A stretch of 64,000 nucleotides of DNA, from NCBI RefSeq assembly GCF_044647545.1, contig NZ_CP172818.1; one strand, given 5' to 3'. The notes below the pieces were generated by a model that saw only the letters and a list, made by a program, of their open reading frames with translations, was not told where the DNA came from and made no database searches. Source of the stretch: Escherichia coli. Its GTDB lineage: Bacteria > Pseudomonadota > Gammaproteobacteria > Enterobacterales > Enterobacteriaceae. A program made the position numbers and the translations under genes. Numbering within the stretch: position 1 is the first letter of the stretch; every line of letters starts with the position of its first letter. Shown here piece after piece: positions 16,055 to 62,111 of this stretch.

Positions 16055-17112
16055 CCGAACCGTTAAAACCACGTATTGATTTCGACGGTCCGCTGGATGT
16101 CGATCAGAATCCTGAATTCAGGGCGCAGCAGACCTTTGACGAAAATCAGGCGCAAAATTTTGCCCCGGCCACGCTCGACGAAGCGCAGGAAGAAGAGGGG
16201 CAAGTTGAAGCGGTGATGGACGCAGCGTTACGTCCGAAACGCAGCCTGTGGCGCAAAATGGTGATGGGCGGGCTGGCTCTGTTTGGCGCAAGCGTTGTCG
16301 GGCAGGGGGTACAGTGGACAATGAATGCCTGGCAAACCCAGGACTGGGTAGCGCTGGGTGGATGTGCCGCAGGGGCATTGATTATCGGCGCTGGCGTAGG
16401 TTCTGTGGTAACAGAGTGGCGGCGCTTATGGCGCTTGCGACAGCGCGCCCATGAACGCGACGAAGCGCGTGATTTATTGCACAGCCATGGCACCGGCAAA
16501 GGCCGCGCATTTTGCGAAAAACTGGCGCAGCAGGCGGGCATCGATCAGTCACATCCGGCGCTGCAACGCTGGTATGCCTCAATCCATGAAACGCAAAACG
16601 ACCGTGAAGTGGTCAGTTTGTATGCGCATTTGGTCCAGCCAGTTTTAGATGCCCAGGCACGGCGCGAAATCAGCCGTTCGGCAGCGGAATCAACATTGAT
16701 GATTGCGGTCAGCCCGCTGGCGCTGGTGGATATGGCATTTATCGCCTGGCGCAATCTGCGTTTGATTAATCGCATCGCCACGCTGTATGGCATTGAACTG
16801 GGGTATTACAGCCGTTTGCGCCTGTTCAAGCTGGTATTGCTGAATATCGCTTTCGCCGGAGCCAGCGAACTGGTGCGCGAAGTGGGGATGGACTGGATGT
16901 CGCAAGATCTCGCTGCTCGTTTGTCTACCCGCGCAGCTCAGGGGATTGGTGCAGGACTTCTGACGGCACGACTGGGGATTAAAGCTATGGAGCTTTGCCG
17001 CCCGCTGCCGTGGATTGACGATGACAAGCCACGCCTCGGGGATTTCCGTCGTCAGCTTATCGGTCAGGTGAAAGAAACTCTGCAAAAAGGCAAAACGCCC
17101 AGCGAAAAATAA
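16051..17112 (+). CDS. ycjF: conserved inner-membrane protein of unknown function (YcjF family)
   Basis: 353 aa ORF with hydrophobic segments; translationally coupled to ycjX. Confidence 0.85.
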
Positions 17113-37901: not shown

Positions 37902-38837
37902 TTATTTCACTTCAACCACATTCAGTCGTAACTCATCCAACTGATTTTCATCTTCTTCAGGCTGCCAACCCGCCGGTTGTAGAGGGATCTCTTCGCGATC
38001 AAACGCCAGATCACCCCCGTTAACCACTTCAGAACCGTGGGTAATGCCTTTGAAATCGAACAGGTTGGTATCGCACAGATGCGACGGCACCACATTCTGC
38101 ATCGCGCTGAACATCGTCTCGATACGCCCCGGATAACGTTTATCCCAGTCACGCAACATGTCAGCAATCACCTGACGTTGCAGGTTAGGCTGTGAACCGC
38201 ACAGGTTGCACGGAATAATCGGGAACGCTTTTGCATCGGCAAAGCGCTGAATATCTTTCTCGCGGCAGTAGGCCAGCGGACGAATAACGATATGTTTGCC
38301 ATCATCGCTCATCAGTTTCGGAGGCATACCTTTCATCTTGCCGCCGTAGAACATATTTAAGAACAACGTTTGCAGGATATCGTCACGATGGTGACCCAGC
38401 GCGATCTTCGTCGCTCCCAGTTCCGTTGCGGTACGGTAAAGAATTCCGCGACGAAGACGAGAACACAGTGAGCAAGTGGTTTTGCCCTCCGGAATCTTCT
38501 CTTTCACGATACCGTAAGTGTTCTCTTCCACAATCTTGTACTCAACGCCCAGTTTTTCAAGATACTCGGGCAGAACGTGTTCCGGGAAGCCCGGTTGTTT
38601 TTGATCGAGGTTGACAGCCACCAGCGAAAAATTGATTGGCGCGCTTTGCTGCAAATTGCGCAGAATCTCCAGCATGGTATAGCTGTCTTTACCCCCTGAG
38701 AGGCAAACCATGATGCGATCGCCTTCTTCAATCATATTGAAGTCAGCAATGGCTTCGCCCACATTACGACGCAGACGTTTTTGTAATTTGTTCAGGTTGT
38801 ATTGTTCTTTCTTACTAATTTCTTGATTTTCTTGCAT
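37902..38837 (-). CDS. ttcA: tRNA 2-thiocytidine synthase TtcA
   Basis: 311 aa ORF with PP-loop SGGKDS motif and paired CxxC motifs; its 5' end overlaps the prophage attachment repeat. Confidence 0.85.
38788..38830. repeat. prophage attachment-site direct repeat (attL copy)
   Basis: ttgttcaggttgtattgttctttcttactaatttcttgatttt, identical to 61887-61929. Confidence 0.75.
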
Positions 38838-38888
38838 TATTTCAGTTCTCTGGTACTAAATGGGGCAAATTGGGGGCAAACTTTGCAA

Positions 38889-40119
38889 CTACGATAACCG
38901 CGCATTCAACATGGCTATCTGTTCGTCGTTCATGTCATCAATCCACATACCGTAAATTTCATACACCATCTGCGCAGTTTCATGCCCCATTTGGCTGGCT
39001 ATAAATGCCGGGTTCGCTCCTGCCGTCAACAGCCAGCAGGCAAAAGTATGCCGCGTATGGTACGGATTACGGCGGCGAATACCAGCACGTTTTACTGCTG
39101 CATTCCACCTTGCCCCCAAACTGCTTACCGAGTAATAAGGTTTTTGTTTTCCGTTACACACCCTGGGCATGAAAACAAAATGCAGTTTTTGCTTTTCGGT
39201 TCTGCATACTGCCGATAATAAAAGGTGACGACTTTTGCGATGATGCCCGGTCAGTTTGTATTGCTCCTTCAGTGCTTCAAGAGCAGGCTGCAGTAGTGTT
39301 ACTGTTCGGATCCCGGCATTTGTTTTTGGGGGACCGAACATATCGAGCCCTCGTCAGGTTTCTTCTGACATTCACTATTCCCTTTTCGAGATCCACATCC
39401 TCCCACGCCAGAGCTGCCAGTTCCCCGTGACGAAGTCCTGAGTAAACGGCAAAGTTCCACAAGTTCTCGCTATCTCCTTTTTCACTTTCCATTAATGCAT
39501 TGAATTCTGTTTTAGATAACGGATCAGGCTTTATTCTGTTCGCTGTAATTTTTTTACTCCTTCAAATGGTTTGGTTGATATAAATCCGACTGATACGCAA
39601 AACGCAACAGCGAACAGAGCAAGGCAATATCGTATCAACTGTGCGCACGGTTCTTCCTTTTTTGTTGGATCTTGGATTATCCAGGTAAAGCGTTTCTCCA
39701 TGCAGCAGTTCATTCCGGTAGTTTAAGATATCGCTATAACGAATATGTGATATCGGGGTACTTTCACAAATTATTATTCTGAGTGTTTTTAATTGTGATT
39801 TCGTTTTCTTCATTGTGTTTGTTGTTAACTCTGTCTCTTTAATTTTTGTCCAGATATCACAAAGCTCTCCGAACGTTTTTATGACTCTCGTTGTCACCAT
39901 TTTTGCCCCAGTGCTGGACTGGGGAAAACGTCTTAAATACTCAAATTCACCGGAGTTTATTTCATGAACTATCAGCGCTCTTAAATTTCCGGCCTTTTTA
40001 ATATTACTGTTTGTAATCTCCCAGCCTTTTAATGTTTCCCGACATCGTTTTCCTCGAAACATGAACCAGATGCGAATGTATCTACCTCTAATCTCGACAC
40101 CTGTTGGTAATTTAGACAT
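38889..40119 (-). pseudogene. intR: prophage tyrosine integrase, reading frame broken by at least two frameshifts
   Basis: Three consecutive minus-strand ORF fragments (39562-40119, 39277-39492, 38889-39341) together resemble one tyrosine recombinase (MSKLPTGVEIRGRYIRIWF...; ...LRHGELAALAWEDVD...; ...RHTFACWLLTAGANPAFIASQMGH...EIYGMW). Confidence 0.75.
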
Positions 40120-40120
40120 A

Positions 40121-40336
40121 TCATGAGTCTTTGATAAACTGATTTATCTTTGGATAGTTGTACCAGATAATCCCTCGTTTGCTGTCTGGCTTACCTAAAG
40201 GAGATACTCGTTTGAAGTGGAAGCCCTCCACCCAACAGTTCTGGCGGTATGCTTCAATTTGTCTGGCCCCCAGACCAGTGCGAAGCATCAGGCCGTATTC
40301 AACCATCCACTCTTCATTAAAGATTACTTGTGCCAT
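40121..40336 (-). CDS. xisR: excisionase-like protein
   Basis: ORF 40121-40360; likely 71-aa product from [15 protein letters not shown]...; immediately upstream of the integrase as in lambdoid int-xis modules. Confidence 0.7.
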
Positions 40337-61153: not shown

Positions 61154-61882
61154 GAAGATATTCCTTAAAATATTATTGATTTTCATTGCGATATTGTATG
61201 TCTGATTCAGGATATGTTGACTTATACATCGGTTTTGTCTGGTTATTGGATATGCCAATCCCTAATTTTATTAGAGCATGACTAAAAATGCTGAATATGA
61301 TAAGGAGCGAAGTGATTATCAGTATGCTGTTCATATAGCCTCGAATTAGTAATGTGTTATATATGATATAGTTGACAATTTTTATCCTGGGTGTTCTTAA
61401 AGTTCGTAGATAAACATTGTCGTTTCAGGTATACAGGAATGCTAACAGGTGGCGGCAAAAATCAGGCGGTTTATGGCGCAAGCTGAAGTGGCAACTGCAA
61501 ACTATCTTATGCAGAGACTCTACACGGATTGGGTTTAAAAGTATACATAGATAACAGTTTTTATCTGAAGAAGAAAAATATCAAGGTGATATAGCCTATA
61601 TGCCTTTGATGCGGAGGAATGAATGTGATGGGAGTGATGTATCTGAATAGTTGAAAAACCGCAGTCACGTCGTATGCAAGAACGTGCTGCGGTTGGTTTG
61701 ACTTTGATTGAGACGTTTTGGAATTTTTTTCGGTGGCAAAAATGGGGCAAAACGCTGCAAAAGGGGCAAAAAAGGGGCAAAAAAAGAGTGGATTATCGTA
61801 GCTTATTGTTGTCGCTGATGATATTTAACACATTGAAAAATAAGTAAAATACTTATGAGTCAGAGAGTTGTGATTTTTGCCC

Positions 61883-61936
61883 TTACTTGTTCAGGTTGTA
61901 TTGTTCTTTCTTACTAATTTCTTGATTTTGCGACAT
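61883..61936 (-). pseudogene. ttcC: displaced N-terminal fragment of ttcA (17 codons)
   Basis: Minus-strand ATG at 61934-61936 encodes [17 protein letters not shown] then stop; parallels ttcA N-terminus [17 protein letters not shown]. Confidence 0.5.
61887..61929. repeat. prophage attachment-site direct repeat (attR copy)
   Basis: Identical 43-bp copy of 38788-38830. Confidence 0.75.
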
Positions 61937-62111
61937 TTAAAAGCGACTCAATTCGTTATATGGCATCAGAAGAGTATGCGTCATGCCGGAACGCCCAGCA
62001 TAAGAAATCTGATATAAAAACTGTGGCGTGTATGGTACGGATTAGAGGGGAAAATGTCAGCACATTTGCGAAATGAATCAAAAAGCCCGCAGCAATGTGC
62101 GGGCGTTAGTG

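Follow-up and report, generated by a model that had tools for sequence, protein, structure and literature searches.

Results

Repeats at the two ends of the Rac prophage

The window (the whole 64-kb stretch of DNA that was analysed) holds the E. coli K-12 Rac prophage, which sits in ttcA; the gene order ttcA, intR, xisR, rcbA, ralR, recT, recE was assigned from a megablast match and the annotation of a K-12-like genome. The two prophage ends share a 43-nt direct repeat at 100% identity (38788-38830 and 61887-61929), with about 23.1 kb between attL and attR. The core given in the K-12 literature is 26 bp (Liu 2015, PMC4632033) and would correspond to 38788-38813 here. The ATG of ttcA (38837) lies just past the 43-nt repeat on the phage side, and therefore the phage provides the first codons of ttcA together with its upstream region, as described by Liu et al. 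2015 (PMC4632033). The features of the two ends are given below, with scores from a weight matrix (PWM) described in a later section.

37902-38837, minus strand: ttcA, start codon ATG at 38837
38788-38830, no strand assigned: attL copy of the 43-nt identity, in the 5' coding end of ttcA; holds the crossover core
38816-38828, minus strand: exact IHF consensus WATCAANNNNTTR (AATCAAGAAATTA), between the core and the P' sites, at the position of lambda H'
38858-38871, minus strand: predicted P' arm-type site, core-proximal; AATTTGCCCCATTT in the sense of int, GGGGCAAA on the plus strand at 38862-38869; best PWM score, 17.2
38869-38882, minus strand: predicted P' arm-type site, core-distal; AGTTTGCCCCCAAT in the sense of int, GGGGCAAA on the plus strand at 38873-38880; PWM 11.2
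38881-38888, minus strand: unsupported third copy CTTTGCAA; PWM below 3
38889-40119, minus strand: intR, tyrosine integrase of the IntBPP-1 subgroup with an Arm-DNA-bind_2 N-domain; frameshifted relative to K-12
40121-40336, minus strand: xisR (ydaQ), excisionase; placed by position against the K-12 annotation
61729-61742, minus strand: outermost degenerate P-arm copy GTGGCAAA (61733-61740); conserved, PWM 4.0
61740-61753, minus strand: predicted P-arm arm-type site, GGGGCAAA at 61744-61751; PWM 16.7, rank 2; invariant in 6 E. coli variants
61752-61762, minus strand: degenerate filler copy ACGCTGCAAAA; PWM below 3; 4 of 11 columns vary
61759-61772, minus strand: predicted P-arm arm-type site, GGGGCAAA at 61763-61770; PWM 16.4; invariant
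61770-61783, minus strand: predicted P-arm arm-type site, core-proximal, GGGGCAAA at 61774-61781; PWM 16.4
61782-61886, no strand assigned: P-arm spacer, AT-rich, separating the arm sites from the core and containing one near-consensus IHF site (61826-61838)
61887-61929, no strand assigned: attR copy of the 43-nt identity; what remains (ttcC) of the ancestral 5' end of ttcA

An earlier note on this DNA had quoted the string aaatggggcaaattgggggcaaactttgcaa, which is present at 38859-38889, and had read in it two copies of GGGGCAAA plus a degenerate third, with a matching array inside the right end. The two left copies are exact and 11 nt apart, lying 31 nt inward of the 43-nt identity, between the ATG of ttcA and the stop codon of intR (38889). 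The right-end array was also recovered, with exact copies starting at 61744, 61763 and 61774, or 106-143 nt inward of attR. The third left copy did not hold up: CTTTGCAA falls below a PWM score of 3 and lacks a counterpart in PHB10 and in two IMG/VR prophages (L070 and L079) introduced below. The motif search of both ends that the note had called for thus yields two exact copies on the left and three on the right, plus the conserved degenerate GTGGCAAA. Read in the sense of int, the motif is TTTGCCCC(A/T), with TTTG(C/T)CCCA as its form across phages, and this repeated motif, dissimilar to the core, occupies both the P and the P' arms within ~200 nt of the core.

Two side observations concern the interval between ttcA and intR: ttcA in lysogens may rely on read-through from intR across 38838-38888, and Int seated at the predicted P' sites would be 25-43 nt upstream of the ttcA ATG.

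IntR has a separate arm-binding domain

K-12 IntR (411 aa) matches the Pfam family Arm-DNA-bind_2 (PF12167, formerly DUF3596) over residues 5-69 (E=4e-26) and, in addition, the Phage_integrase catalytic domain, and so has the separate N-terminal arm-binding domain of an integrase that acts on a lambda-type att site. The N-domain is predicted to adopt a fold of three strands and one helix. Structural comparison of the IntR model gave values of 5-6 against AP2 DNA-binding domains, 4.7 against the arm-binding domain of the HPI integrase (3jtz; 2.2 A over 51 residues), 4.3 against lambda integrase (1z1b) and 3.8 against the N-domain of the Tn916 integrase (1bb8). No arm-domain relatives came up when the PDB was searched by sequence with IntR and an N-domain profile.

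Integrases with DUF3596, including those of the Stx2a phage, BPP-1 and Gifsy-2, form the 'IntBPP-1' arm-binding subgroup (Smyshlyaev et al. 2021, PMC8138268), in a study that classified the proteins and predicted the arm-binding fold and in which DNA sites for this subgroup are not described (PMC8138268). IntR belongs to this subgroup, having both the DUF3596/PF12167 domain and homology to the Stx2a-phage and BPP-1/BMP-1 integrases.

The copy of intR in the window differs from that of K-12 by clustered substitutions and at least six indels of 1-2 nt (39205-39640), which split it into two open reading frames (38889-39341 and 39562-40119). For 38700-39700 the best match among complete E. coli genomes is no higher than 97.7%, set against 100% identity to MG1655 for the attR arm. 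The divergence suggests either genuine decay of the gene or errors in sequencing; if the sequence is taken as it stands, the window carries a broken copy of the cognate integrase gene.

Two inverted occurrences of the motif lie within intR. One, TTCATGCCCCATTT at 38979-38992 on the plus strand, ranks fifth among the PWM matches in the window; its reverse complement encodes Q-M-G-H of integrase box II, and it is found at the same spot in every homologue. The Gly codon of Q-M-G-H is GGG in all 69 IMG/VR loci, and neighbouring synonymous sites vary. This inverted copy could have arisen by coincidence, or it may be an additional functional site, in which case it would constrain codon choice in the integrase. 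The other, an exact GGGGCAAA at 39902-39909 in opposite orientation (minus strand), lies in the N-terminal coding region of intR, has no equivalent in the int gene of PHB10 and is probably there by chance.

The motif recurs around the attachment sites of related phages

We compared approximately nine elements, some of them related to each other, that carry integrases homologous to IntR. Copy numbers below are given as P' + P.

PHB10 (complete genome with contiguous attP): Int 69% identical to IntR; diverged ttcA 5' fragment; 2 + 3 copies
IMG/VR prophages L070 and L079, in diverged ttcA genes: Int 69%; ttcA; 2 copies each (attL only)
Stx1-converting phage NC_004913 (933W-type): Int 43.5%; wrbA; 2 + 4 copies around the annotated att
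VT1-Sakai: Int 43%; yehV; 2 copies (attL only)
Yersinia phage 06.16-1: Int 42.5%; att target not determined; 2 + 2 copies
phiCTX-like Pseudomonas phage BR319a: Int 31%; tRNA-like core; 2 + 2 copies of the variant GTTCCCA
Bordetella phage BMP-1: Int 26%; tRNA-like core; 2 + 2 copies

In PHB10 the int stop codon is followed by TTTTTGCCCCTAT, TATGCCCCTAT, the ttcA fragment, ~105 nt of an unrelated AT-rich spacer and three copies of TTTGCCCCTA. The Stx1 phage has GTGCCCCAGACGTGCCCCAA in the 3' coding end of int, then the annotated att, then the pairs TTTTGCCCCAAATATGCCCCAA and TTTTGCCCCAATAGTGCCCCAA, which its record labels only as repeat region. GTGTCCCATGTATGCCCCAT stands ~55 nt ahead of the annotated att in VT1-Sakai, and the Yersinia phage carries ATGTCCCACCCATGCCCCAT at the end of int and TTTGCCCCATTCTTGCCCCATT at the opposite end of its record. 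BMP-1 shows TTTGCCCCAAATTCGTCCCAAAG at the end of int, a tRNA-like core and then TTTGTCCCAAGATTTGTCCCAAG; the same layout is kept in BR319a as an 11-nt pair, a tRNA-like core and a second 11-nt pair. The common arrangement is two copies at the 3' end of int, the core, and then two to five further copies. Of 12 pairs, 10 have their copies 11 nt apart and two have them 12 nt apart; in the six elements that allow the measurement, 173-211 nt separate the first P' copy from the first P copy.

The comparison with other prophages at ttcA, which the earlier note had suggested as a check, placed the motif at the same positions in PHB10, L070 and L079. The latter two have two copies 11 nt apart between the int stop codon and the ttcA ATG in flanks that otherwise differ, so that the motif is present, rather than absent, at the ends of diverged ttcA prophages. 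They come from a scan of IMG/VR by integrase alignment, in which nearly all of the 80 loci end at the int stop codon and arms were usable in L039, L070 and L079. A further candidate source of attP, vB_EcoS-683R6, was set aside, its record being a prophage prediction that includes host ttcA.

Across these homologous elements the motif and its layout are held while flanks and core diverge, with one exception. Citrobacter phiNP, which has a DUF3596 integrase, carries a gene directly after int and no array adjoining int; its attP is elsewhere or different, and this exception counts against the reading of the motif as a shared arm site.

In three of the phages the P' sites fall within the int reading frame, at 2439-2463 of the 933W-type locus (L004), 2432-2456 of the VT1 locus (L005) and 2717-2741 of the Yersinia locus (L006). 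There they translate as a C-terminal tail, APDVPQ, VPCMPH and VPPMPH, respectively, a tail that is absent from IntR and from the integrases of PHB10 and the phiCTX-like phage.

The motif is concentrated in the arms

Counting both strands of the 64-kb window, we found seven exact copies of GGGGCAAA, compared with 2.85 expected from shuffles. Five of the seven are in the two arms, all on the intR-sense strand, and the only two further copies, at 16159 and 39902, are both in the opposite orientation. We then scanned the window, ~128,000 strand-positions, with a 14-nt PWM built solely from sites of phages other than Rac. Its four highest matches were 38858-71, 61740-53, 61759-72 and 61770-83 (scores 16.4-17.2), all on the intR-sense strand; the second left copy ranked 14 with a score of 11.2. 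By our arithmetic, the chance that all of the top four matches would fall in the 2 x 160 nt on the phage side of the cores, on one strand, is ~4e-11. The sites for the PWM were gathered by regular expression, which introduces some circularity, and a k-mer count is free of that problem: in each attP examined, the 6/7-mers with the most repeats are TGCCCC-type words (GTTCCCA in BR319a), and for Rac, PHB10, the Stx1 phage and BR319a these words surpass all shuffles. In leave-one-out PWM scans of loci of 3-4 kb, most motif copies were recovered among the top matches.

The earlier note had named equal frequency of the motif elsewhere as grounds for abandoning its reading; within the window both the exact copies and the top PWM matches are instead concentrated in the arms. 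One-mismatch variants of the motif are common in the window (92 matches compared with 71 expected), as they would be if a low-complexity word had merely clustered by chance. That explanation has a negligible probability in our judgement, given the clustering of the exact copies, the ranking by an independent PWM and the recurrence of the motif in eight other elements.

The arrays might also be structural DNA, in which phased A-tracts bend the arms, or attract a nucleoid protein of the host, and Int makes no sequence-specific contact. The copies are indeed 10-12 nt apart with A/T runs alongside (GGGGCAAAAAA), the flanks of the PWM are A/T rich, and A/T tracts could bend DNA independently of Int. 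The conserved part, however, is the G/C core TG(C/T)CCC, and the A/T flanks differ from phage to phage in both length and sequence; the P' copies of the 933W-type, VT1 and Yersinia phages lie in coding sequence that lacks long A-tracts; and the occurrence of GTTCCCA in the phiCTX-like phage, whose integrase (31%) is one of the two most diverged among those examined, fits recognition by a specific protein. We regard a purely structural role as improbable.

Variation of the right arm within E. coli

The right arm of the window, identical to that of MG1655, is variable elsewhere in the species. Relative to window positions 61752-61763, attR of strain JX21CE33 (L090) has one extra unit of exactly 11 nt (AAAAGGGGCAA), and strains D3, UMNF18 and PapRG-04-4 carry unrelated sequence outside the array. 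Homology of D3 to K-12 starts approximately at the outermost GTGGCAAA, and that of UMNF18 and PapRG-04-4 a few tens of nucleotides further out, from which it follows that the conserved module ends at or shortly outside the array; the outermost GTGGCAAA copy marks the outer edge of the conserved attP module. Of the columns in the sites, 2 of 32 vary; the degenerate middle copy has 4 variable columns of 11, and the spacer 20 of 105. The contrast between sites and spacer is in the expected direction and is not significant (Fisher p=0.10). Because it is variable, the filler copy ACGCTGCAAAA is probably not an arm site.

These variants also bear on the proposal that the left copies are promoter or leader elements of ttcA and the right array is part of a small open reading frame (61674-61847). 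The left pair is suitably placed, 25-43 nt upstream of the ttcA ATG, and some strain annotations call a hypothetical protein of 51-57 aa over the right array. Yet the 11-nt insertion in JX21CE33 shifts the frame of the 57-aa version, and D3 and UMNF18 have unrelated sequence in place of the 5' half of the frame. On the left, a promoter scan detected no sigma-70-like promoter in 38700-39200, and promoter and terminator scans of both prophage ends returned no element overlapping the repeats. The motif, moreover, flanks attachment sites in wrbA, yehV and tRNA genes, where there is no ttcA. We consider this proposal highly improbable.

E. coli O55:H7 CB9615 (L094, 347.7-348.1 kb) has a contiguous attP-like junction next to a tail-fibre assembly pseudogene and an integrase fragment. 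In it, two copies on the P arm and two on the P' arm, the latter 10 nt apart, enclose a diverged core; its appearance is that of a prophage remnant in which attP has stayed unrecombined.

The repeats and the excisionase XisR

Excisionases recognise direct repeats that are helically phased along the P arm, and XisR shifts a 294-bp attR fragment (PMC4632033); the repeats might accordingly be binding sites for XisR, the recombination directionality factor, and not for Int. Mapping the primers of Liu et al. onto the window places the shifted AttR probe at 61717-62010 and the AttM probe, which was unshifted in the published EMSA (PMC4632033), at 61596-61886. AttM contains the entire array and was nonetheless not bound, and XisR alone therefore does not recognise the repeats; since AttR was shifted and AttM was not, XisR binding needs sequence at or beyond 61887. 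The motif also occurs on the P' arm beside int, where Xis sites are not expected. With the motif not confined to the P arm and the array not bound by its cognate excisionase, we rejected the repeats as Xis/RDF sites, a role that we judge very improbable. A requirement of XisR for 61887-62010, rather than for the P-arm spacer, is unusual for an excisionase.

Comparison with lambda and other integrase systems

As a reference, we located the attachment site in the lambda genome (NC_001416), where the core centre is at position 282 of the locus, P'1-P'3 lie at +54 to +84, 10-11 nt apart and with the last overlapping the int stop codon, and P1 and an inverted P2 lie at -142 and -111. The Rac P' pair is ~50-90 nt and the P copies are ~110-170 nt from the crossover/core region. 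In both systems transcription of int runs toward attP, tandem sites spaced 10-11 nt apart stand at or over the int stop codon, the other arm has further sites 100-145 nt out, IHF has a site between the core and the P' sites, and the motif is unrelated to the core. The Rac P arm has a single IHF site, with one mismatch (61826-61838). Sites for accessory factors occupy the equivalent P-arm interval in lambda.

The two systems differ in the motif itself, TTTG(C/T)CCCA in Rac and C/AAGTCACTAT in lambda, in the number of P' sites (two and three, respectively), in the orientation of the P-arm copies, which are all direct in Rac whereas lambda P2 is inverted, and in the position of the Rac core in a protein-coding 5' end that is replaced by the phage. 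The N-domains also belong to different Pfam families, Arm-DNA-bind_2 in IntR and Arm-DNA-bind_1 in lambda Int.

The IHF site at 38816-38828, between the core and the arm sites, is where a lambda-type att site would have one, and it coincides with the IHF peak that Kasho et al. 2021 (PMC8407004) published for Rac attL.

The N-domain fold of IntR, a three-stranded sheet with a helix (AP2-like), resembles those of the Tn916 integrase and the HPI/P4-like integrases (PDB 1bb8, 3jtz, 3rmp), and N-domains of the Tn916/HPI type read direct repeats that flank the ends of the element. Unlike this shared fold, the sequences have no detectable similarity to IntR, and the DNA motifs differ.

According to work attributed to Weisberg and colleagues, the lambda and HK022 integrases reportedly share common arm-type sites and differ in core specificity. 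The elements compared here are similar in that one arm motif accompanies differing attB targets (ttcA, wrbA, yehV and tRNA genes). They differ in that the apparent sharing, as judged from sequence, spans integrases 26-69% identical to IntR and hosts in Escherichia, Yersinia and Bordetella.

Discussion

We propose that the repeats are very probably the arm-type binding sites of the Rac attachment site, recognised by IntR. This is the reading that the earlier note had offered, and it agrees with each expectation that sequence can address for arm-type sites of a lambda-like tyrosine integrase, being supported at the level of sequence by the arm-binding domain of IntR, the presence of the motif on both arms, its lambda-like distances from the core, its conservation and its rarity elsewhere in the window. 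On this basis, the functional extent of Rac attP would be defined as ~38790-38882 joined to 61729-61929.

We infer binding by IntR, bridging of arms and core, and a division of the sites between integration and excision, and suggest the following mechanism. The excised attP would consist of the 3' end of intR, two P' sites, the IHF site, the core (the ttcA 5' fragment), the ~105 nt spacer and three to four P sites, with all arm sites in one orientation. The Arm-DNA-bind_2 domain of each IntR protomer would dock on a TTTGCCCC(A/T) site while the C-terminal domains bind and cut the core, and the 11-nt pairing would set two N-domains on one face of the helix. Bending by IHF would fold the arms back, so that a tetramer of Int could bridge arms and cores as in the lambda intasome. 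Integration would split the sites, leaving two at attL and three to four at attR. The minimal 2 + 2 arrangement of the Yersinia phage, BMP-1 and the phiCTX-like phages would match the four N-domains of a tetramer, and we speculate that Rac and the Stx phages may use their extra pair to separate integrative from excisive geometries, by analogy with lambda P1/P2.

The concept is not new, being the lambda paradigm applied to another family; the predicted DNA sites of IntBPP-1 would fill a gap. Our literature search, in coverage that extended to papers other than subscription-only ones, found no description of arm-type sites for IntR, 933W, BPP-1, phiCTX or other IntBPP-1 members and no mention of the motif string, nor did it find binding or mutational data for IntR or its homologues. 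The analysis offers a testable DNA-recognition motif for a subgroup that was called only 'putative' in the one survey found and that includes the integrases of the wrbA and yehV Stx phages. The motif could sharpen the prediction of prophage boundaries and could guide the design of a minimal attP for integration vectors of the IntR or phiCTX type, and the predicted sites frame work on directionality and on cross-talk between prophages.

A broader and, in our view, doubtful possibility is that the arm code TTTG(C/T)CCCA in 11-nt pairs is common to the IntBPP-1 integrases examined, the phiCTX-like variant apart, including the integrases of the wrbA and yehV Stx phages. If this were true, the integrases of co-resident prophages, such as a Rac-like prophage and the Stx phages of O157 strains, could occupy each other's arms, which could favour or impede integration and excision of the prophages nearby.
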